In this document: positions 41,621 through 58,779 of the stretch, piece by piece
Layout: every line of letters starts with the position of its first letter
Position numbering within the stretch: the stretch's first letter is position 1
Source of the DNA: an uncultured Alphaproteobacteria bacterium
GTDB lineage: Bacteria; Pseudomonadota; Alphaproteobacteria; HIMB59; GCA-002718135
Length of the DNA stretch: 64,000 nt
Assembly: GCA_902590695.1 (NCBI GenBank)
Contig: CACIXR010000006.1
Location: forward strand, 21,289 to 85,288
Direction: 5' to 3'
Program-made: the position numbers and the translations under genes
The notes under the pieces: model-generated
The model's database searches: none
The model's input: only the letters and a program-made list of their open reading frames with translations
Told to the model about the DNA's origin: nothing

Positions 41621-42232
41621 TTATAATCCACCATTTGAAGTTAAGAAGTCAGAAATTTTTTCTATACCGTTATTATTTTTCATTTCACCAAAAATATAAG
41701 GTAAACCATTTCTGGCTTCATTGACATCTTGTTTCATTTGTTCTAAATCAACATTAACATATGGAGCTAGGTCAACTTTATTAATTACGAGTAAATCAGA
41801 TTTTCTTATAGCTGGTGCTTTTTTTCTCGGTATGTCTGCACCTTGCGCCACATCAATCATATAAATTGTTAAATCAACTAATTCTGGACTAAAAGTTGCC
41901 GCTAAATTATCACCACCTGATTCAATAAGTATTAATTCTAGATCTGGAAATTTTTTTTTCATTTCATCTACTGCAAGTAAATTTATGGAGCAATCTTCTC
42001 TTATAGCGGTATGTGGACAGCCACCAGTTTCTACACCTTTAATTCTTTCTATAGGTAGAACCTGTGCTTTCATTAAATATTCCGCATCTTCAGTTGTATA
42101 AATATCATTTGAAATAACTGCCATAGAAACTTTTTTAGATAAATGACGACATAATGCTTCTGTTAAACTAGTTTTACCAGTCCCTATTCCACCACCTATT
42201 CCAACTTTTAAAGGTCCATTTATATTATTCAC
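41621..42232 (-). CDS. ureG: Urease accessory GTPase
   Basis: [29 protein letters not shown]. Confidence 0.96.
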
Positions 42233-42864
42233 GTTAAATAAATCCTTGAGTCTAAATTTTCATGCTTAATGGCATAAATATCACCAATAAAAAAACTTGT
42301 ACCTATATCTTTAAGATTTAGTTTATCTGATTGATTTAAAAAATCTTGAATTTGATTAATAAAAATAACATTTAGACTCTGTCCATCTTTTTGAGACATT
42401 GGTATATGTTTTACACATACATTTATTAAATTAGAAATGAATGATTGTAGATAAAACTTAATTAAATCATCAAACTTAATGTCAAAATGCAATCCAGCTT
42501 TCGCCAAACAATATATAAATGATGTATTTTCAGGCAGAGATAATTCCCAACTATCTTTCATGATTTTACGAAAAGAATTTCCCATATCTATCATTTCTAT
42601 TTGTCTTTCTTTAGAGGAAGCACTTGCTAAGATTAATTGATTAATTTCCTTACCTTTGTAAATTGACTTCATAAAAATATAGTCATTTCTTAATGTGCCA
42701 TAAAATAAAAGTGCATCTAAAAATTCTTTAACATCATTATTATTTTTAATTTTTTTATCATCAATCAGCGCTTCTAAACCATGAGAGTATGCATAAGAGC
42801 CAATAGGAAAAGAAGATGAAAACCATACTTGTAGTATTTGATGAGGATCTTTAAATTTTTTCAT
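42229..42864 (-). CDS. ureF: Urease accessory protein F
   Basis: [28 protein letters not shown]; likely start ATG 42864. Confidence 0.92.
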
Positions 42865-42865
42865 T

Positions 42866-43312
42866 TTAATGTTTGTGGCTATGTGTTCTGCCCATACCAT
42901 AAGCGCCACCTTCAGGTTTAAATTTTTCAAAAACTTTTTTTACATTTCCGTGTAATTTTAGAACCATATCAAGAATTACAGCATCATCTTGAATAAGAAT
43001 TCTGTTTTCTTCAATTTGACATGGCAGATGTCTATTTCCTATGTGCCATATAATTTGCTTTAAATTATTACCTGTTATTTCAATTAAATTTTCTTCTTTA
43101 GATAGAACTTTAATTAAATTTCCATTTTCTAATTCAAAATAATTATTTTCATCAACACTGACTGTTTCTTCAAGATTAACTAAAAATTCAGTTCCATTAT
43201 TTGCTGTAAGTTTTTTTCTACGTATAAATCTTTCTTCATAAGATAATGAGATTTCATCTAATAATTCTTTGTTTTCATGATTGTGAAGAATTATTTTTAA
43301 AGAAGTATCCAT
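42866..43312 (-). CDS. ureE: Urease accessory Ni-chaperone E
   Basis: WHIGNRHLP, PEGGAYG, His tail; likely start ATG 43312. Confidence 0.92.
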   Translation of the reverse strand: MDTSLKIILHNHENKELLDEISLSYEERFIRRKKLTANNGTEFLVNLEETVSVDENNYFELENGNLIKVLSKEENLIEITGNNLKQIIWHIGNRHLPCQIEENRILIQDDAVILDMVLKLHGNVKKVFEKFKPEGGAYGMGRTHSHKH

Positions 43313-43313
43313 T

Positions 43314-45020
43314 TTAGTACATAAAATAACGTTGAGCCAACGGTAATGTTTCAGCCGGTTCACAAGTAATTAACTCGCCATCTGCTAAAACTTCATAGGT
43401 TTCTGGGTTAACTTCTATTTTTGGATAATAATCATTTAATATCATATCTTTTTTAGAAATTTTTCTGATATTTTTAACAGGTAATAGAGATTTATTTACT
43501 CCAGAATTTTTGAATGAATTTTTATCTAAAGAGGCTTTACTTACAAAAGTTGCAGTAGATTGTTCTAATGATTTCCCAAAAGAGGAAAACATTGGTCGTG
43601 AATATACTGGTTGAGGTGTTGGAATAGAGGCATTCGGATCACCCATTTGTGAACAAGCAATACTTCCACCTTGTAAAACCATTTCAGGTTTAACACCAAA
43701 AAAGGCAGTATCCCAAATAACAATATCAGCACGTTTATTTTTTTCAATACTTCCAATATGTTCGGAAATACCATGGGCAATTGCAGGATTAATTGTATAT
43801 TTAGCAATGTATCTTTTAACTCTTACATTGTCGTTATTACCCTTCTCATCTTTTAATTGTCCCCGTTGAACTTTCATTTTATGTGCTGTTTGCCATGTTC
43901 TAATAATAACCTCGCCTACACGACCCATTGCTTGACTATCAGAAGCAATAATTGAAAATGCACCCATATCATGAAGTATATCTTCAGCTGCAATTGTTTC
44001 TTTTCGAATACGACTTTCGGCAAATGCTACATCTTCTGGTATAGATTTATCTAAGTGATGGCATACCATTAACATATCCAAATGCTCTTCAACTGTATTA
44101 ACTGTATAGGGTCTCGTTGGGTTAGTAGAAGAAGGAATAACATATTGTTCACCGCAAACTTTTATAATATCGGGTGCATGACCACCACCAGCTCCTTCAG
44201 TGTGAAAAGCGTGAATGGTTCTTCCATTAATTGCTTTTATCGTGCTCTCTACAAATCCACTTTCATTTAATGTATCAGTGTGAATCATAACTTGAATGTC
44301 ATGTTCATCAGCAACATTTAAACAATTATCGATAGCTGCTGGAGTTGTACCCCAATCTTCGTGAAGTTTTAACGAACTTGCTCCAGCAATTACTTGTTCT
44401 TCGAGAGCTTTAGGTAAAGAACTATTTCCTTTACCTGCAAATGCTAAGTTCATAGGAAAAGCATCAGCAGATTGTATCATTCTCTCTATGTGCCATGGCC
44501 CAGGTGTAACTGTAGTTGCCAAGGTGCCATGTGCAGGACCAGTTCCACCTCCCAGCATAGTTGTAATACCTGAATGAAGTGCATCATCTATTTGCTGAGG
44601 ACAAATAAAATGGATATGACTATCAAAACCACCAGCTGTTATTATCTTACCTTCACCTGCAATTATTTCTGTTCCTGGTCCAATAATAATATTTACGTTT
44701 GGTTGTGTGTCTGGATTACCAGCCTTACCAATTTCATTAATTAAGCCATCTTTAAGACCAATATCTGCTTTGTAAATTCCATTTACATCTACTATTAAAG
44801 CGTTTGTTATAACTGTATCAACAGCTCCATCTTTACGAGATACTTGAGATTGCCCCATTCCATCTCGAATGACTTTTCCGCCACCAAATTTTACTTCTTC
44901 TCCGTATGTTGTTAAATCTTTTTCAACTTCAATAAATAGTTCAGTGTCAGCAAGTCTAACCTTATCACCAGTTGTTGGTCCATACATATCGGCATAAGCT
45001 TCTCTTTTTATTTTTTTCAT
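43314..45020 (-). CDS. ureC: Urease alpha subunit
   Basis: [43 protein letters not shown]. Confidence 0.98.
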
Positions 45021-45328
45021 TACAATTTACCCATAACTTTCTTATTAAAACCAAATATCTTTCTATTTCCTGTAATTGGAATTAATTCTACATCTTTTGA
45101 TTGACCAGGTTCAAACCGAACAGCTGTTCCAGATGGTATATCTAAACGCATACCGTTTGATTTTTCTCTATCAAATTTCAAATATTCATTTGTTTCAGCA
45201 AAGTGATAATGACTACCAACTTGAATTGGACGATCACCACTATTTGAAACTTTTAAAGTTATTGATTGTCTTTCATCATTCAAATTAATATCACTATTTT
45301 GTTTTGTTATTATTTCACCAGGTTTCAT
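45020..45328 (-). CDS. ureB: Urease beta subunit
   Basis: [22 protein letters not shown]. Confidence 0.97.
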
Positions 45329-45630
45329 TATCTTATTGGTTTATGTACTGTTACTAATTTTGTTCCATCTGGAAATGTTGCTTCAACTTGTACTTCTGGA
45401 ATCATATCTGGAATACCATCCATACAATCCTCTTTTTTTACTACATGCGCTCCTGTTTCCATTAATTCTGATACCATTTTTCCATCTCTTGCACCTTCTA
45501 TGACAAAATCTGTTATCAACGCTATCGCTTCTGGATAATTAAGTTTAACACCTCTTTCAAGACGTTTTCTAGCAACATTAGCTGCCATACTGACCATCAA
45601 CTTATCTTTTTCTCTTGGTGTTAATTTCAT
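45328..45630 (-). CDS. ureA: Urease gamma subunit
   Basis: [31 protein letters not shown]. Confidence 0.97.
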
Positions 45631-46428
45631 TTATAGATCCCAACTTTTTGATAGTTTATCATTTATTATATTTTTCATAATAAAATTTAGTGTTTTTTTT
45701 AAATCATAATTATCATCAGCTAAGCACCTAATTACAATCTTATCATCAAATTTTGTCATTTCACAATAATGATTTTCTAAGTTATTTATAACTTTACTTA
45801 ACTCAGACTCAAGTTGATGAATAATATCACCAAAAATTAAAATTGTTGATAAAGATGATTGGTTATAAAATGTATAATTGTTATTAAAATTATCAATCGT
45901 TGATCCTTTTATATTAATTGCTTCAAAATGCTTTATTGTAGAATTCGTAAAAATTTTCCATTGATCAGAAAAAGAAATATTTTTAATTTTTTCAGACATT
46001 GCTTTTCTTCCAAAAATTGTAGTTTCACAAAAAATTAAATTAGAATTATTTGATAAATTAATATTTATACTTCTTCTTAATTTTGAATTATCAAATAAAA
46101 TTAACTCTTTGGGCAACCAATACAAATTTGAATTATTTAAATTGATATTTATGTCTACTTTTGCAGGATCACCTATTCCTGAATAAATTTTATCAGCGGC
46201 TTGCGTACAAATACTTAATTCAGAATTATGAATTGTAGCATTAATTTCAATATTATCATTACAAGTAATTCCTCCTGCAGTGTTAATTAAAACTAATTCT
46301 TTATTATTATTATTATAATTATTTGGATTTAAAATTTTACAACAACCACTTTGAAAAAATTTTTTAAAATTATTATCAAATAATTCAATATTAATTTTGC
46401 CATTTGATCTTTGAAGTAATTTATCCAT
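45631..46428 (-). CDS. ureD: Urease accessory protein D
   Basis: INTAGGI, TQAADKIY, WLPKE, FGR; first gene of the ure operon. Confidence 0.9.
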   Translation of the reverse strand: MDKLLQRSNGKINIELFDNNFKKFFQSGCCKILNPNNYNNNNKELVLINTAGGITCNDNIEINATIHNSELSICTQAADKIYSGIGDPAKVDININLNNSNLYWLPKELILFDNSKLRRSININLSNNSNLIFCETTIFGRKAMSEKIKNISFSDQWKIFTNSTIKHFEAINIKGSTIDNFNNNYTFYNQSSLSTILIFGDIIHQLESELSKVINNLENHYCEMTKFDDKIVIRCLADDNYDLKKTLNFIMKNIINDKLSKSWDL

Positions 46429-46477: not shown

Positions 46478-46554
46478 TGGCGTGCCCGGCATGATTCGAA
46501 CATGCGGCCCCCAGATTAGGAATCTGGTGCTCTATCCTACTGAGCTACGGGCAC
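46478..46554 (-). tRNA. tRNA-Arg(CCT)
   Basis: GTGCCCG acceptor stem, TAGCTCAGTAGGATAGAGC D-arm, CCAGA-TTCCTAA-TCTGG anticodon arm, GTTCGAAT T-loop, encoded CCA end. Confidence 0.95.
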
Positions 46555-52536: not shown

Positions 52537-52968
52537 ATGGCTGAATATATTTTAGAAGCTGGAGGAACAATGGCATTTACATTCCATGTTTTATTTATGC
52601 TTTTTAATTTATTTATTATTTATCAATTTTATTTCAATGATAAATTTTTTAATGAATTAGGCTTTTCAAATGAGGAGCCTAAATTAGTTTTTAGAGGTCC
52701 TCTGGGCGCGGTTTTTTTAACAATGTTGTTAATGTCAATATTGCTAACTTTTGATGTTACTGGAAATACTTATGATGAAAATGTTGTACAATATAAATTT
52801 TGGTATTCATTTTTATTTATGCTTATGGCCATAGCTTTAATTAGTTCAGTAGTTAGATACTTTAACCTTGTAAATAACTACGGAATTACTCCAAATATTA
52901 GAGGAGTTATGTTCCCCTTAGTTGGACTCATATTAATTATTCTTAGAACAATTTTTGAAGGTTATTAA
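52537..52968 (+). CDS. Hypothetical 4-TM membrane protein
   Basis: RBS AGGAG before ATG 52537; hydrophobic helices. Confidence 0.6.
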   Translation: MAEYILEAGGTMAFTFHVLFMLFNLFIIYQFYFNDKFFNELGFSNEEPKLVFRGPLGAVFLTMLLMSILLTFDVTGNTYDENVVQYKFWYSFLFMLMAIALISSVVRYFNLVNNYGITPNIRGVMFPLVGLILIILRTIFEGY

Positions 52969-52976
52969 TATAAATT

Positions 52977-53000
52977 ACAAGCGGTTTAATAACCGCTTGT
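52977..53000. terminator. Bidirectional terminator
   Basis: ACAAGCGGTT/AACCGCTTGT perfect stem between convergent genes. Confidence 0.75.
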
Positions 53001-53001
53001 T

Positions 53002-53394
53002 TTAATTAAAATAACTTCTTATTTTATTTCTTGATGCAAAATGTAATATCAAAGAAACTATAAATAAGAATAAAACAAAGTAATATTCTCTAAATTCAAC
53101 TTGACTAGTATAAAAAACAAATAAACAACAAATTGTAAACGATTTAATATAAATTTCTAAAAACTGAATAGGATACAATTTTTCAGTTTGAAGAAAAAGA
53201 TATCTAAACCCAAAGTAAGCAAAAGTTAGAAAAACAGCTAATCTGACTGAGGTAATTCTATGATATGGTATTTCTTGTTTCTCAACGATAGTGAATGGAA
53301 AATAGATAGTTACACCTATAATCTCTGCAATTATAAATACTAATGACCATAAACTTAATATGCCTATTATTATTTTAGCTAATGTTCCTGCCAT
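53002..53394 (-). CDS. Hypothetical membrane protein
   Basis: Four TM segments; IPYHR motif; likely start ATG 53394. Confidence 0.55.
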   Translation of the reverse strand: MAGTLAKIIIGILSLWSLVFIIAEIIGVTIYFPFTIVEKQEIPYHRITSVRLAVFLTFAYFGFRYLFLQTEKLYPIQFLEIYIKSFTICCLFVFYTSQVEFREYYFVLFLFIVSLILHFASRNKIRSYFN

Positions 53395-53508
53395 ATTTAA
53401 ACATGGCCTTTTTTTTAATAGGGTTGAGACCAACCTATAATATTATTTTATCTAAAGATTCAAAAAAAATATATAAATTTCATATTATTAGCGGAAATTA
53501 ATGTTTTT

Positions 53509-53904
53509 TTATCTGAAATTATCTTTAATTGGTGAGAAATATAAAAGAATTAAAATTGCACCACTAATCAACCCTCCAATTTGATCAAGCATACCACTAA
53601 AAGCAGTATAGATTACAGATCCACTAAAATAATTTAGAACTATGCCAGCTACTACTAAAAATAAATAGAGTCGTTTGCCATAAGAAATAAATTTATAAAG
53701 TAAATTTAAAGTAAATAGATATAAAAAGAATAAACTAATCGATATAATTCGTGAAAAATTTTCAAAATTTGATAAAAATCCATCATTTAAATTTTCATAA
53801 ATATTGGAAATTTCAGATGGTTGATACATAGATGATATAACCATTAAAATTATAACAATAAAGTCTGCTAGAATTAAATTTTTAAAAATTTTTTGAATTT
53901 CCAT
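53509..53904 (-). CDS. Hypothetical membrane protein
   Basis: Four TM segments; C-terminal YFSPIK.F. Confidence 0.6.
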   Translation of the reverse strand: MEIQKIFKNLILADFIVIILMVISSMYQPSEISNIYENLNDGFLSNFENFSRIISISLFFLYLFTLNLLYKFISYGKRLYLFLVVAGIVLNYFSGSVIYTAFSGMLDQIGGLISGAILILLYFSPIKDNFR

Positions 53905-54015
53905 AATAGCTATAAATTCAATTAAATATTGTATCTAACTTAGATATGTAGCTTGAATATTACAATAAGATTATTTAAATCTATTTAAAAATAAATTAGA
54001 TATTAAAAATTATGT

Positions 54016-54378
54016 TTACCACATTGAATGAATAATATCCGAACTATTAATTTTTACTGAATTCTCACATTTACTTTCAAAATCACTGAAATCATCTCTA
54101 AAAGTTGCACCATTGTTTTGTGCTTGCTCAAAATGATCATCTATTCCTGCTTGATTTTCATAAACCTCTGTTAAGATTAGAGACATATTGCCTGTTTTAT
54201 TTCCATCTTTAAATTCAGGGCCTATAGACCAATTTAACATTAGGAGTGCTTTATTACCCTCCTTTGTATGTGTTTCCTTCATCCATTTTGTATGATCTTC
54301 TGCAATTCTTTTTGCAATATCATTAAGTTCAGGTTTAAAAATCCATAAATACTGAAGTTGTTTTTTATTTTGAAACAT
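54016..54378 (-). CDS. Small alpha+beta barrel (ABM-like) protein
   Basis: RBS AAGGAGG; LTEVYENQAGIDDH. Confidence 0.6.
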   Translation of the reverse strand: MFQNKKQLQYLWIFKPELNDIAKRIAEDHTKWMKETHTKEGNKALLMLNWSIGPEFKDGNKTGNMSLILTEVYENQAGIDDHFEQAQNNGATFRDDFSDFESKCENSVKINSSDIIHSMW

Positions 54379-54433
54379 ATTTCCTCCTTTTTTTAAAATA
54401 ATACTAGTAAGTTAAGAAAATATTTCAAACAAA

Positions 54434-55273
54434 TTATTGTTGAGAATTATTTTCCAATGTTTGTACATGAATATCTAAATTTTCTATCATAGCATTATTA
54501 TTTATATTTCCATAAAAAACACCTTTAATAGGTGATGCATAACTTGCATCAAGTCCACAAGAAACACGTACGTATCTTTCATCTGGACTGCACTTATTTG
54601 TAGGATCAAATCCCACCCAACCTAAATCATTTATATAAAATTCTGCCCAAGCATGTGTAGATTGAAATTCTGAAGAATGGGAATTATTATGCATATAACC
54701 ATTTACGTATCTAGCAGGTATTCCTAAAGTTTTTGCTGCTGCGATCATAATATGTGCTTGATCCTGACAGACTCCCTTTTTCTGATTAAATGCTTCAATG
54801 GCTGTTGTTTGATTATTTGTCGTTAAAGGTTTGTATTCAATTTTTTCAGCTACTAGATTCATCAGATTATGAGATGTTTCTAGATTTTCATTTCCATTAA
54901 AACCATTTTTAGCTTCAATAGCTAAATTTTTTATATTCGCATTTGCTTTTGTTAAATTTGATTCTCTTAAGTAAACTAAAGGATCTATTTTATCAGAAGC
55001 ACTATGGTAAATACCTTTTGTATCAAATGTTTCAACTTTTCCAAGAACTGTAAATTGTATTTTTTTCACCTTGTTTGTATTTGTAAAACTTTGAATATTA
55101 TTAGCCTCACCATCCTGATAAATTTTTGATTTCTTAGCTGAGTCGTTATGGACATTCCACTCTAAAATTTTAAGACCATTATATTCTGAAGGATGCAGTT
55201 TAGTGGTTTGAATTAATCCCGTAACTGGATTTTTATATTCATACTTAGTTGTGTGTTCGATTATTAGTTCCAT
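54434..55273 (-). CDS. Transglutaminase-like protein
   Basis: IEHTTKYEY N-terminal domain; catalytic triad GVCQD, THAWAE, GFDPTN. Confidence 0.9.
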   Translation of the reverse strand: MELIIEHTTKYEYKNPVTGLIQTTKLHPSEYNGLKILEWNVHNDSAKKSKIYQDGEANNIQSFTNTNKVKKIQFTVLGKVETFDTKGIYHSASDKIDPLVYLRESNLTKANANIKNLAIEAKNGFNGNENLETSHNLMNLVAEKIEYKPLTTNNQTTAIEAFNQKKGVCQDQAHIMIAAAKTLGIPARYVNGYMHNNSHSSEFQSTHAWAEFYINDLGWVGFDPTNKCSPDERYVRVSCGLDASYASPIKGVFYGNINNNAMIENLDIHVQTLENNSQQ

Positions 55274-55274
55274 A

Positions 55275-56210
55275 TTAATTAAAAAACTCCTTATGTATTT
55301 CGTTATCAACACTAGATATTTTTCTAATAAATTGTGTTACAAATTGATGAAGTCCATATTCAACAATAGTTTCTATTTTTTCTTCTTGAATTTTAGTATT
55401 TAGATCTTTTAAATTATTATAAATTCTTCCAACTTTTTCTGGACTGCATGTTAGGTTAGTTAAATGTTTAACAATATTCTGAATACAAAAACTTAAAGAT
55501 CTAGGACAATTATTATTTAAAACTAAAAAGTCAGCAATTTTAGTTGCGGTAATATTACCATCGTATGCCCATCTAAAAGCTCTAAAAGAAGATAAAGAGC
55601 GAAGTAATATACTCCATTGCATATTATCGATATTACCGCCTACATATTGAGGCTTAGGTAATAAAACAAAATACTTTACATCTAATAATCTTGCAGAATT
55701 ATCAGCCCTCTCAATAAATAAACCAAGAAAAAGAAAATTATAACCATCATTTCTAAGCAAAGAACTTAATGATCCTCTAAATAAGTTTACTTGTTCTATA
55801 GTCCACTCTGTCAGATCAGGGATATCAGATATTGAAAATTGTTGTTGTTTTAAGTTTAGTATCTCTTGATAAGTTTTATTAATTGCTAACCAAGACTCAG
55901 GGGTAAAGGAAGTTCTAACTACTAATGCGTTATTGCGTGCATTAAGAATACAATTGTAAACGGATGAAGGATTACTTTCATCAAAAAATAAATAATCTTC
56001 CACATTTTTCTGTTCAATTGTTTTATATTTATTTTTATATCCCTCAATCGCTCCAGCAGCAGATAAAACTGATTCCCATTCATTATTATAACCACTTGGA
56101 TTTGGAAAAAGAGACATTCTATAACCAACATCCAAAAGCCTGGCTGTAGTTTCAGCTCTTTCCATATAACGACTAATCCAATATAGATATTCAGCTGTTC
56201 TACTTAACAT
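55275..56210 (-). CDS. Alpha-E domain protein (DUF403)
   Basis: MLSRTA..LYW.SRYMERAE and second ER repeat IERADNSARLLDVKY; PRSL. Confidence 0.92.
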   Translation of the reverse strand: MLSRTAEYLYWISRYMERAETTARLLDVGYRMSLFPNPSGYNNEWESVLSAAGAIEGYKNKYKTIEQKNVEDYLFFDESNPSSVYNCILNARNNALVVRTSFTPESWLAINKTYQEILNLKQQQFSISDIPDLTEWTIEQVNLFRGSLSSLLRNDGYNFLFLGLFIERADNSARLLDVKYFVLLPKPQYVGGNIDNMQWSILLRSLSSFRAFRWAYDGNITATKIADFLVLNNNCPRSLSFCIQNIVKHLTNLTCSPEKVGRIYNNLKDLNTKIQEEKIETIVEYGLHQFVTQFIRKISSVDNEIHKEFFN

Positions 56211-56219
56211 TTTTATTCC

Positions 56220-57626
56220 TCATTCAGCCAAAACCCATGTGTCTTTCACACCGCCTCCTTGGCTAGAATTTACAACAAACGAACCTTCATTCATTGCAAC
56301 TCTAGTTAAACCACCAGAACTTAATTGAGCTTGTTCTCCAATTAAACAAAATGGACGTAAATCTACTCTTCTTCCCTCAACTTGATTTTTGATTAGTGTT
56401 GGTGAAAATGAAAGATCAAGTAAAGGTTGAGCTATATATCCTTTTGGATTTGTTGAGAGTTTAGTTTTAAATTTATCAATAGAGGATTTAGAAGATTTTG
56501 GACCTATTAACATCCCATAACCTCCAGATCCATCAACCTCTTTTACAACAAGTTCATTTATATTATCTAAAACATATTTTAATTCTTGTTCCTTTTCGCA
56601 ATTCCATGTTTCAACATTATCTAAGATTGGTTGTTCGCCTAAATAAAATTTGATCATCTCAGGTACATAAATATAAATTGCTTTGTCATCTGCTATGCCT
56701 GCTCCAGGCGCTGAACATATATTGACACCACCTGTTCTATAAACATCCATAATTCCTGGAATACCAATTACAGATTGAGGATTAAAACATAGAGGATCTA
56801 AAAAATCGTCATCTATTCTTCTGTAAACAACATCTACTCTTTTTGGACCATCAACTGTTTTCATATAAAGATATTTTCCTTCAACAAATAAATCTGTTGA
56901 TTCAACCATTTCAATACCCATTTGATCTGATAAAAAACTATGTTCGTAATAAGCGCTATTTAAAGGACCAGGTGTAAGTAACACACATACTGGTTCTGGA
57001 TTTTCACATTTAATAGGAGCTAAACTCATCAAGGTTTGCAAAAGTCTTGTTGGGTAGTCATCTATTGGTGTTACTCTGTTGTTATGAAATAAATCAGGAA
57101 ACATTCGCATCATTATTTCTCTATTTTCTAGCATGTAAGAAACACCACTTGGTGTTCGACAATTATCTTCTAAAACAAAATAATCATTGGGACCTGTTCT
57201 TACTAAATCAATACCAATTATAGGACTATAGATATCTCTAGGAGGAGAAAAACCAAACATTGAAGGTTCAAAAGATTTTTTTTTGTAAATAATTTCTTTA
57301 GGAATTATATTAGCTTTTATTATTTCACCTTGATTATAAATATCAGCAAGAAACGCATTAAGTGCTTTAGCTCTTTGGATTACTCCTCTTTCTAATCTTA
57401 ACCATTCAGTGTAGGTAAATATCCTTGGAATTAAATCAAACGGAATAATTCTTTCTCTTGCAGTTTCGTTATTTGTAGAAAATGTAATTCCAATATTTCT
57501 AAAATGAGTTTCAGCTTCAGCATTCTTTTCAAGAATAACTTTTGAAGTCATTTGATCTAACCAATCATTAATATTGTTATAATGATTTCTTATAACTGAT
57601 TCAGATTGATACATTTCATTAAACAT
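56220..57626 (-). CDS. Circularly permuted type 2 ATP-grasp protein
   Basis: PFDLIPR, LEDNCRTPSGVSY, YRRIDDDFLDP, GSGGYG, VVNSSQGGGVKDTWV; RBS AAGAGG before ATG 57626. Confidence 0.93.
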   Translation of the reverse strand: MFNEMYQSESVIRNHYNNINDWLDQMTSKVILEKNAEAETHFRNIGITFSTNNETARERIIPFDLIPRIFTYTEWLRLERGVIQRAKALNAFLADIYNQGEIIKANIIPKEIIYKKKSFEPSMFGFSPPRDIYSPIIGIDLVRTGPNDYFVLEDNCRTPSGVSYMLENREIMMRMFPDLFHNNRVTPIDDYPTRLLQTLMSLAPIKCENPEPVCVLLTPGPLNSAYYEHSFLSDQMGIEMVESTDLFVEGKYLYMKTVDGPKRVDVVYRRIDDDFLDPLCFNPQSVIGIPGIMDVYRTGGVNICSAPGAGIADDKAIYIYVPEMIKFYLGEQPILDNVETWNCEKEQELKYVLDNINELVVKEVDGSGGYGMLIGPKSSKSSIDKFKTKLSTNPKGYIAQPLLDLSFSPTLIKNQVEGRRVDLRPFCLIGEQAQLSSGGLTRVAMNEGSFVVNSSQGGGVKDTWVLAE

Positions 57627-57754
57627 CAAAAAGTAAACCTCTTGATATTTGAATAGAATATCTTTTTATTATCTAACTTTTTAAACATAGTTATAACAAA
57701 CCTTTCTTATCCGTTATAATTCATGCTTAGCTATGGAAATTAATAATAAGATCC

Positions 57755-57806
57755 GCGTTCCTTCAGCTTTAGCCTACTTCCGATCTGTTAATACAGATTG
57801 AACGAT
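57755..57806 (-). ncRNA. Glutamine riboswitch (glnA motif), downstream aptamer
   Basis: Minus strand ATCGTTCA-ATCTGTATTAACAGAT-CGGAAGTAG-GCTAAAGC-TGAAGGAACGC: P1 CGTTC/GAACG, P2 hairpin, E-loop P3. Confidence 0.85.
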
Positions 57807-57820
57807 TTAATAACTTGCAT

Positions 57821-57873
57821 GCGTTCCTTCAACTTTCGTTTACTTCCGTTTTGAATTATTCAAAATGAACGAT
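57821..57873 (-). ncRNA. Glutamine riboswitch (glnA motif), upstream aptamer
   Basis: Minus strand ATCGTTCA-TTTTGAATAATTCAAAA-CGGAAGTA-AACGAAAGTT-GAAGGAACGC; stems covary with the other copy. Confidence 0.88.
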
Positions 57874-57975
57874 GAAATTTTAATAATAAAATTTATTTAT
57901 TTTTAAAAATGAATTTCATACTTATTTGATATGCATTTTTTGCATATACAAAATAATATTGAATTACTTACGGTT

Positions 57976-58683
57976 TTAATAGTCTTTTATCGATCTAAGA
58001 AAACAAATATAAATAAAATAGCCCGTACAAATTAACCATATTAAAAGAACAATTGTATCATTTATAATTAAGTTTATTTCTGATTTTGTTACTAATCGCA
58101 GTGTTGTTGCTGACCAAACAACAGTAAAAAAAATCGTTAAATTTCTAAATGATTTTACTCTTAGTGGATGAACAAACTTCCATGGAACGAATGTCAATAC
58201 TGATAAAACAATTATCACAATTAGGTTTACCCACTCATTCGTATTTAATATAAAGAAATATAAAACAACAACATTCCAGACTGCAGGAAAACCTTGAAAA
58301 TAATAATCATCCGTTTTCATATTAACGTTTATAAAAGTATACAAAGAAACTCCAAATATAAGAGCAGGCATAATCATTTCAAAACCTGATGGCACCATCT
58401 GAAACCAGTAAATCATTAAAGCTGGATTAATAACGTAATTTAGATAATCAATAATGGAATCTAAAATAATCCCATCTAGATTTGGTGCTTTTTCTTCAAC
58501 TCCAACCTTCCTAGCTAACGTTCCATCAACTCCATCTACAAGTAAGGCCATACCAAGCCATAAAAAACTACCAACTTGATCATTATTTAATATTGATACT
58601 AAAGCAAGAAACCCAAGTATAGCCCCAGAACCAGTAAAGGCATGCACACCCCATGCGGATATTTGATCTTTATCAACTTTCAT
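57976..58683 (-). CDS. pcs: Phosphatidylcholine synthase-like CDP-alcohol phosphotransferase
   Basis: VHAFTGSGA, DGVDGTLAR, LDSIIDYLNYV, FQGFPAVWN, FVHPLRV. Confidence 0.82.
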   Translation of the reverse strand: MKVDKDQISAWGVHAFTGSGAILGFLALVSILNNDQVGSFLWLGMALLVDGVDGTLARKVGVEEKAPNLDGIILDSIIDYLNYVINPALMIYWFQMVPSGFEMIMPALIFGVSLYTFINVNMKTDDYYFQGFPAVWNVVVLYFFILNTNEWVNLIVIIVLSVLTFVPWKFVHPLRVKSFRNLTIFFTVVWSATTLRLVTKSEINLIINDTIVLLIWLICTGYFIYICFLRSIKDY

Positions 58684-58779
58684 AAATGATGTTGGTCTTT
58701 ATCATTAAAATAAAAGAAAATAAAATTTTTGAAAAAAAAAGTAGAAAAATTAAGGTTTTAAACGATTTTAAAATTTGAC

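Follow-up and report, generated by a model that had tools for sequence, protein, structure and literature searches.

The stretch of DNA analysed here, referred to as the window, comprises 64,000 nucleotides (nt) of contig CACIXR010000006.1 (positions 21,289 to 85,288, forward strand; GenBank assembly GCA_902590695.1) and derives from a streamlined uncultured marine alphaproteobacterium, the assembly of which (1.39 Mb, 30 contigs) is 72% complete. The minus strand of the window carries an operon of three genes (the triad, or ligase operon), encoding a circularly permuted ATP-grasp ligase, an Alpha-E domain protein and a transglutaminase-like protein, and the leader of this operon contains two glutamine-I riboswitch aptamers of the glnA motif (Rfam family RF01739). 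Positions refer to the window:

57818 to 57873, minus strand: glutamine-I aptamer 1 (RF01739, 66.0 bits, E 2.1e-12, model positions 1-53 of 53)
57752 to 57806, minus strand: glutamine-I aptamer 2 (RF01739, 64.2 bits, E 6.8e-12, model positions 1-53 of 53)
56220 to 57626, minus strand: circularly permuted ATP-grasp ligase, 468 amino acids (PF14403, CP_ATPgrasp_2, E 5.1e-153)
55275 to 56210, minus strand: Alpha-E domain protein, 311 amino acids (PF04168, E 2e-86)
54434 to 55273, minus strand: predicted transglutaminase-like Cys-His-Asp enzyme, 279 amino acids (PF01841, Transglut_core, E 2e-24; PF08379, Bact_transglu_N, E 2e-12)

The three genes lie adjacent on one strand, with intergenic gaps of 9 nt and then 1 nt (the ATG at 55273 follows the Alpha-E stop codon), and have the composition of a peptide-ligation system. 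Iyer et al. are said to have described the ATP-grasp/Alpha-E/transglutaminase combination as such a system in 2009. The start codon of the ATP-grasp gene was placed by the conserved MFNE N-terminus of the protein, which matches Protein Data Bank (PDB) entry 3n6x ('putative glutathionylspermidine synthase') with an E-value of 1.2e-174. The motifs GVCQD, HAW and FDPT of the transglutaminase-like protein align with matching residues of 3isr and 6g49, and we take these residues to be the Cys-His-Asp of the transglutaminase fold that carries out catalysis. For the Alpha-E protein, a structure search gave no solved relative, its sole match being a nanobody (E 0.005). The first-pass annotation, made from the letters of the DNA, had noted that the proteasome-like Anbu gene is absent, and this is borne out: no Anbu/HslV (Proteasome family) gene is present in the locus (52900-58700), and neither PF00227 nor an Anbu-like query from a genome of the same order found a match in the 72%-complete genome.

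We scanned the whole 64-kb window with the Rfam 15 covariance models. Four matches exceeded the gathering score of their family, and two of these are the RF01739 matches listed above, both full-length and well beyond the family cut-off of 35 bits. They substantiate the earlier reading of two imperfect repeats (57755-57806 and 57821-57873) as a tandem glnA motif in the 5' leader of the ATP-grasp gene, for which a covariance-model check had been proposed, and the repeat coordinates agree with the Rfam matches to within 3 nt. The cores AUCGUUCA (CGUUCA), CGGAAGUA and GAAGGAACGC are found in both aptamers. Aptamer 1 and aptamer 2 have different sequences in their two variable hairpins, and no non-canonical pair is flagged in P1 or either hairpin in the alignments of either aptamer, in line with the earlier observation that the stems differ and still pair. 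Judged from its sequence, nothing sets the riboswitch apart from other members of its aptamer family. The spacer between the two matches is 11 nt long (57817-57807), too short for an expression platform of its own, so that the element is a dual-aptamer switch. The pair lies on the same strand as the ATP-grasp gene and precedes its ATG (57626) by 125 nt.

The association between aptamers and ligase is conserved. We compared 35 further genomes of the genus with the window's own genome (36 in total, with 55-89% completeness for the set; the genomes are close kin, and counts over them are not independent). RF01739 matches occur in 34 of the 35 further genomes, and in none of 24 genomes from a second family of the order. 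The ATP-grasp gene is present in 20 of the 35 and in the window's own genome, and in 20 of these 21 gene-bearing genomes an RF01739 match lies 118-190 nt upstream of it on the same strand; in the 21st a contig end cuts the leader, and the 3' part of aptamer 2 is retained. In a species-level survey (aptamer-core pattern scan, one genome per species) we found at least 117 loci with at least 122 aptamer clusters, assigned to lineages of single-amplified or metagenome-assembled genomes (MAGs) that include uncultured Alphaproteobacteria, SAR116, SAR86 and others. Among the clusters listed, the first downstream open reading frame (ORF) encodes an ATP-grasp protein in 16, a glutamine-synthetase-like protein in 16 and an ammonium transporter in 21; another 59 precede other ORFs, mostly cyanobacterial ones of about 56 amino acids, and in 10 the downstream ORF is lost at a contig end. 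Eight of the 16 listed ATP-grasp clusters are genus-like (86-100% identity), five come from another alphaproteobacterial lineage (42-61% identity, one labelled Rickettsiales) and three from the gammaproteobacterial SAR86 (43-47% identity). All eight distant cases have a single RF01739 match (56.7-66 bits). The second alphaproteobacterial lineage with a single aptamer has the full triad; in SAR86, ATP-grasp and Alpha-E genes are followed by a convergent tRNA-synthetase gene, and the aptamer is located in a divergent intergenic region. The recurrence of the link in at least three lineages with differently built leaders argues against chance juxtaposition. The survey of glnA motifs upstream of CP_ATPgrasp_2 genes that had been suggested for this locus therefore supports a real association, in the genus and in two other lineages. 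The second family of the order (loci L030-L034) has an ATP-grasp gene 46-49% identical to that of the window, with neither an Alpha-E or transglutaminase neighbour (by tblastn) nor a riboswitch; at L030, the one locus of this family that was scanned with Pfam, a divergent proteasome-family (Anbu-like) gene adjoins the ATP-grasp gene.

Other genes behind glutamine aptamers were recorded in the same survey. Seven loci (L048, L065, L073, L101, L130, L131 and L142, from SAR86, Pelagibacteraceae-labelled and other proteobacterial genomes) have one or two aptamers, then a tail of the cyanobacterial type and then an ORF of 52-71 amino acids. Pairing of this tail with the Shine-Dalgarno region is possible, as in GCAUCU...AGGAGAUG. 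The two of these ORFs that were scanned with Pfam (L048 and L101) matched no family; the ORFs may be counterparts of cyanobacterial glutamine-synthetase inhibitors. Gcw_chp outer-membrane proteins (by Pfam) follow the aptamers of the gammaproteobacterial loci L035, L044 and L061, and ORFs that resemble these in size, the only feature compared, follow those of L132 and L146 (SAR86). Glutamate-synthase-like genes are found at L051 and L064 (small subunit) and at L144 (large subunit; labelled Thiothrix), a TonB-dependent receptor at L057, and at L094 a gene of the glutamine-synthetase family that was read as 327 amino acids.

In the window's genome, RF01739 gives eight matches, which form four tandem pairs. 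The three pairs outside the ligase leader precede glnA (directly after the PII gene) and the ammonium-transporter genes amt1 and amt2. All four leaders have a single platform, located after aptamer 2, and the leader alignment shows that the inter-aptamer linker CGCAUGCAAAGUUAU... is kept in all of them. The 37 nt on the 3' side of aptamer 2, GCGGAUCUUAUUAUUAAUUUCCAUAGCUAAGCAUGAA, hardly differ among the ligase, amt1 and amt2 leaders and have diverged in glnA. The ligase thus uses the linker and platform of the amt genes, and should therefore be switched in the same direction as these. The link between the triad and nitrogen status that the first-pass annotation had drawn is well founded, since the platform is common to the ligase and amt genes. 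The leader also contains a palindrome, for which a pattern search of the genome gave two further sites:

57930 to 57946, no strand assigned: palindrome TATGCA-N5-TGCATA, candidate transcription-factor site, with its centre about 65 nt upstream of aptamer 1
G000:C1:125036-125052 and G000:C4:38481-38497 (L152:2482-2498): further sites of the palindrome

These three genomic sites compare with none for the reversed control pattern. Of the other two, one precedes the amt1 aptamer pair by 64 nt and one precedes a solute-binding-protein/creatininase operon, and the palindrome in the ligase leaders is conserved across the genus. It looks like the operator of a nitrogen-related transcription factor. 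As ligase and amt1 have both the palindrome and the aptamer pair, the ligase operon would be under the same two regulatory layers as the ammonium transporter. The GlnD/GlnE nucleotidyltransferase domain (PF08335, GlnD_UR_UTase) was found in none of the 36 genus genomes, nor was Sigma54_DBD above the cut-off, in searches with positive controls that behaved as expected. GlnD and sigma-54 are likely to be truly missing from the genus, although the 36 misses come from incomplete genomes, and the riboswitch may be the main glutamine sensor of these cells. A protein of about 448 amino acids with a modest match to Sigma54_activat (about 70 bits; G000:C19:2432-2893 and equivalents) is present in most genus genomes, and may be an NtrX-like or degenerate activator.

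Between aptamer 1 and the ligase gene, we recognize the following elements of the leader:

57810 to 57821, minus strand: linker CAUGC-A-AGUUAU, proposed as the 5' strand of helix P0, with its initial C immediately 3' of P1 in aptamer 1
57722 to 57754, minus strand: expression platform, comprising H1, the core UUUCCAUAG (57739-57731) and the 3' strand of P0
57754-57751 with 57737-57735, minus strand: weak hairpin H1 (GGAU with UCC), within the platform
57734-57729 and 57726-57722, minus strand: 3' strand of P0 (AUAGCU and GCAUG), within the platform
57691 to 57720, minus strand: hairpin H2, immediately preceding the leader ORF, with a loop that contains the Shine-Dalgarno-like GAAAGG
57626 to 57688, minus strand: leader ORF (uORF) of 20 codons, the UGA stop codon of which overlaps the ligase AUG (UGAUG)

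The pairing between linker and platform, P0, would enclose aptamer 2. It is present in the minimum free energy (MFE) fold of the full leader and in the RNAalifold consensus. Among 55 unique tandem leaders, which are close kin, helix A (5 bp) can pair in all 55 and helix B (6 bp) in 51, which makes P0 a plausible helix. The amt leaders have hairpins of different sequence at the position of H2. A search of the minus strand from 57752 to 57626 found no intrinsic terminator, and the leader therefore lacks the mark of a transcription-termination platform. A scan for sigma-70 promoters gave 31 sites where 35.8 were expected from shuffled sequence, and is uninformative in such A+T-rich DNA.

The uORF is a constant feature of the ligase leaders: all 27 unique leaders from the genus have one of 16-25 codons that ends between -6 and +8 nt from the ligase ATG. 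The encoded peptides are unrelated between subgroups (MVKKLDNKK..., MIGIKFGF..., MIEWILKK...). Conservation of position, and not of peptide, agrees better with translational coupling than with a peptide that has a function. We also considered the uORF as the precursor of a ribosomally synthesized and post-translationally modified peptide (graspetide type) acted on by the ligase, and rejected this because its peptides lack conservation and the single-aptamer lineages have no uORF.

The platform core is complementary to sites of translation initiation downstream. We scored such duplexes over the whole platform, where the minima were dispersed and some fell in H2 or in coding sequence, and then narrowed the scan to the 11-nt core, with 100 shuffle controls each. 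In 10 of 10 glnA leaders, the glnA-type core UUUCAUAA can pair with the start AUGAAAU, at -5.6 to -7.9 kcal/mol. For the amt-type core, UUUCCAUAG, the complementary site is the amt Shine-Dalgarno sequence AUGGAG (-6.4 to -7.1 kcal/mol in the seven correctly anchored amt leaders; 13 amt1 leaders, anchored on an upstream in-frame ATG, were left out). The amt1 site, AUAAUGGAGGAUUAAUG, is visible only in the leader listing and not in the duplex scores. In the ligase leaders the core can pair with the start region of the uORF, at about -7.0 to -7.4 kcal/mol in 22 of the 27. Two arrangements among the single-aptamer relatives bear independently on the direction of switching. At L095, only 3 nt separate GGAACGC from the ligase ATG, and the sole Shine-Dalgarno candidate, GAAGGA, is inside the aptamer; at L041, L050 and L054, a CUCUUUC element can pair either with the purine-rich strand of the aptamer (in the MFE fold) or with the Shine-Dalgarno sequence GAAAGAG.

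Thirteen RNA-library runs are listed that hold part of the leader or of the 5' coding sequence. We used contigs from four runs of four studies, which are a kind of evidence that cannot prove RNA origin, strand or 5' end and in which uncovered stretches are uninformative. Contigs from two studies bridge coding sequence and aptamers (run X1, record 5, 57442-58051; run X2, record 14, 57232-57804), and a third contig covers 57714-57883 with zero differences (run X4, record 23). No pile-ups of contig begins or ends and no joints are reported in the four examined runs. These contigs are compatible with co-transcription of the aptamers and the operon. In run X2, the summed contig depth reaches about 1950 at 57766-57772, over part of aptamer 2, versus 24.5 on the flanking contig; this peak may be due to paralogous leaders (amt or glnA) that are highly expressed and have this sequence in common.

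Taken together, the leader of the triad operon is very probably a genuinely glutamine-responsive one. It is probably a glutamine-OFF switch, through which the operon would be made at low glutamine and shut off at high glutamine. We base this direction on the platform common with amt, on the layouts of L095 and of L041, L050 and L054, on the complementarity between core and start regions, on the uORF with its constant position and variable peptide, on the lack of a terminator-like site, and on the induction of homologous genes in Pseudomonas putida (PMC8050072; here and below, statements on published work refer to those parts of each paper that were available). The best overall explanation, which we hold with some confidence, is a dual-aptamer glutamine-I switch with OFF logic at the level of translation, coupled to a uORF, on a nitrogen-starvation ligase operon.

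For the mechanism we tentatively propose a double clamp with anti-initiation and uORF coupling, which is somewhat more likely to be wrong in this form than right. Without glutamine, the pyrimidine-rich core UUUCCAUAG would be held by P0 and H1. A glutamine-bound aptamer would capture the nucleotide just 3' of its own P1; in the Synechocystis gifB switch, capture of the C after P1 upon glutamine binding has been proposed to melt the helix of the adjoining tail (Klahn et al., 2018; PMC6212724). The capture would loosen P0 (by aptamer 1) and H1 (by aptamer 2), and the core, once free, would pair with the region where translation of the first downstream ORF starts, and so block ribosomes. The blocked ORF in the ligase leader would be the uORF, and translation of the ligase would follow through coupling.

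The triad is most likely a nitrogen-starvation effector built on an ATP-dependent amide-bond ligase, the substrates of which might be peptides, proteins or amines; the Cys-His-Asp enzyme would serve as a hydrolase or transamidase. Expression at low glutamine, to which the co-regulation with amt and glnA points, would favour a role in nitrogen scavenging, mobilisation, capture or protein turnover over a storage polymer, which the first-pass annotation had offered as one example beside reversible gamma-glutamyl tagging.

Several observations weigh against this interpretation. All characterised glutamine riboswitches, of the glutamine-I and glutamine-II classes alike, are ON switches in the accounts available (PMC6212724, PMC6698751), so that an OFF switch would be the first. 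Across the 55 leaders, the changes in P0 are one-sided only (A-U to G-U, U-G to U-A), with zero compensatory double changes, and RNAalifold recovered aptamer 1 and P0 and not the canonical fold of aptamer 2. H1 is worth only -0.4 to -3.4 kcal/mol and is missing in leaders of the L029 and L068 types. The pairing of core and uORF in the window itself reaches -4.0 kcal/mol, which 67 of 100 shuffles equal, because of one G-to-U difference; it is weak too in L028, L029 and L068, and even in the good cases the shuffle controls are moderate (0-12 of 100). Pairing of the core with the initiation region of the ligase itself is weak (-1.2 to -4.3 kcal/mol). Finally, the RNA-library contigs may derive from DNA, and record 5 of run X1 extends into the upstream gene and thus defines no transcription start.

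The record of activating glutamine riboswitches is also an argument for functional aptamers that act as an ON switch, as in cyanobacteria, by which glutamine excess would induce the triad, for example for protein tagging or for building or trimming a nitrogen-rich product. ON designs do occur in heterotrophs, as the Shine-Dalgarno-pairing tail GCAUCU...AGGAGAUG is present in the proteobacterial loci L048, L065, L130, L131 and L142. The ligase leader, however, does not have the cyanobacterial-type design, and its platform is that of amt1 and amt2. Induction of an ammonium transporter by high glutamine would be physiologically perverse. Moreover, P0 contacts no initiation region, so its melting alone could not activate translation, and at L095 the Shine-Dalgarno sequence lies inside the aptamer. 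The homologous genes of P. putida rise on poor nitrogen supply (PMC8050072). We therefore regard an ON switch as improbable. An OFF switch that works through Rho-dependent termination or mRNA decay, with the conserved AUAGCUAAGCAUGA as a processing or loading site, is unlikely as well, though less so. It would account for a platform that lies 35-100 nt from the regulated start codons and is conserved far beyond the need of pairing, for core/initiation pairings that are short (6-8 bp) and statistically modest, and for the want of covariation support for P0 and H1. It sits less well with the difference between the cores UUUCAUAA and UUUCCAUAG, which mirrors the difference between their targets AUGAAAU and AUGGAG, with the coupled-stop uORF in 27 of 27 leaders, and with a leader that has no intrinsic terminator.

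A last possibility is that recombination placed a copy of an amt leader, with its aptamer pair, upstream of the triad, where it has no adaptive role. Linker, platform and palindrome are near-identical to those of amt1, as a recent leader duplication would give. Yet the arrangement is retained across genus members in which the ligase is only 87-90% identical, the ligase leader has a conserved uORF of its own, and differently built single-aptamer leaders precede ATP-grasp/Alpha-E genes in the second alphaproteobacterial lineage and in SAR86; such a copy is hardly credible. We return to the glutamine-OFF switch on a starvation operon. In its widest form, glutamine riboswitches would be the primary nitrogen sensor in marine heterotrophs that lack GlnD and sigma-54, would include the first OFF members of the class, operating by a double clamp, and would control the triad as a core starvation effector, alongside glutamine synthetase and ammonium transporters. 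Its wiring into nitrogen control would have arisen independently, through RNA in marine alphaproteobacteria and SAR86 and through protein regulators in Pseudomonas, and the triad would be a conserved machine that mobilises or captures nitrogen by ATP-driven amide-bond chemistry. This extension is possible, and we hold it to be doubtful, more so than the double clamp by itself.

The surroundings of the operon were annotated as well. The gene upstream of the leader, on the same strand, is phosphatidylcholine-synthase-like. Three small ORFs follow the operon on the minus strand (54016-54378, 53509-53904 and 53002-53433), none of them with a Pfam family; one is soluble, with 120 amino acids and a strong Shine-Dalgarno sequence, and two are apparently hydrophobic. 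We left them out of the operon because they are kept in only part of the genus. A bidirectional terminator-like hairpin lies beyond them at 52977-53000. About 8 kb from the ligase operon, the minus strand carries a urease cluster at 41621-46428 with six or more genes (UreD, gamma, beta and alpha subunit, UreF and UreG families); a tRNA gene lies beside it at 46481-46554. An RF02514 (5_ureB_sRNA) match of 122.5 bits (44582-44871, plus strand) is antisense within the urease alpha gene (43314-45020, minus strand). It most likely reflects homology of conserved urease coding sequence rather than evidence of a small RNA; in a Pelagibacterales MAG, the RF02514 family has been read as a urease regulator, according to the available part of a 2025 paper.

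Since its description, the triad, with or without Anbu, has been found to be widespread and has had no defined substrate. A glutamine-sensing RNA in its leader names its physiological signal without an intermediary, and the conditions under which it acts become predictable. The link of this gene family with nitrogen is already known from P. putida, and is corroborated rather than discovered here. There, growth on nitrate instead of ammonium raises PP_2685 (Anbu) and PP_2688 (ATP-grasp) 16- to 22-fold (log2 4.4 and 4.0), and PP_2688 has a promoter responsive to nitrogen depletion (PMC8050072, Table 2 for the expression values). Papers on the structure of Anbu cite its induction in nitrogen-limited Pseudomonas putida and, in the parts available, call its role unconfirmed (PMC5666114, PMC6376114), and a metagenome correlation study ties DUF403/404/407 and Bact_transglu_N to urea-metabolism domains. 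What is new is the riboswitch target, an operon without a defined function, together with the recurrence of the association across lineages, the amt-type platform with a coupled uORF and the proposed OFF logic. Marine-metagenome glnA riboswitches are hereby assigned to organisms, with arguments from sequence on their direction; the taxon and direction of the metagenomic glnA-linked switches were stated as not known by Klahn et al. (2018; PMC6212724), and the available part of a 2025 paper makes brief mention of RF01739 in SAR86. Should OFF logic and double clamp prove true, the riboswitch class would have a second regulatory mode, and streamlined bacterioplankton an RNA-based replacement for GlnD/NtrBC signalling.

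Tandem glnA RNAs upstream of nitrogen genes were reported from marine metagenomes (Weinberg et al., 2010; PMC2864571), and 157 glnA-motif doublets have been counted (Sherlock et al., 2022; PMC9481103). The ligase leader resembles these in being a marine doublet of a kind that is found near glnA, PII, glutamate-synthase and ammonium-transporter genes; ATP-grasp, Alpha-E and transglutaminase targets are not named in the parts of the two papers that were available. A search of the full-text literature gave no report of a glutamine riboswitch with an ATP-grasp or transglutaminase gene, although the supplementary gene tables of Weinberg et al. (2010) and Klahn et al. (2018) may list it, and no riboswitch was found in the accessible parts of the literature that joins circularly permuted ATP-grasp proteins with nitrogen or Alpha-E. 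Tandem glycine riboswitches (PMC9481103, Table 1) are likewise built from two like aptamers with a short linker and one platform; they differ in ligand and fold, and the release of two clamps is what we infer for the ligase leader.

The triad itself is comparable to the Anbu operon of Pseudomonas and other bacteria, with which it has in common the three protein families in one operon and the tie to nitrogen limitation. In contrast to that four-gene operon, the ligase locus is without Anbu, and its input is a glutamine-sensing RNA, in a genus without detected sigma-54 and GlnD domains. A close counterpart of the leader is the gifB switch of Synechocystis, which belongs to the same aptamer family, is most likely under translational control as well, and has the nucleotide 3' of P1 as its proposed moving part. 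It consists of a single aptamer with a tail that pairs with the Shine-Dalgarno sequence, and turns ON the glutamine-synthetase inhibitor IF17 (PMC6212724). The ligase leader, unlike gifB, combines two aptamers with a long-range helix on one platform and a uORF, probably with OFF logic, and has a ligase operon as its target.

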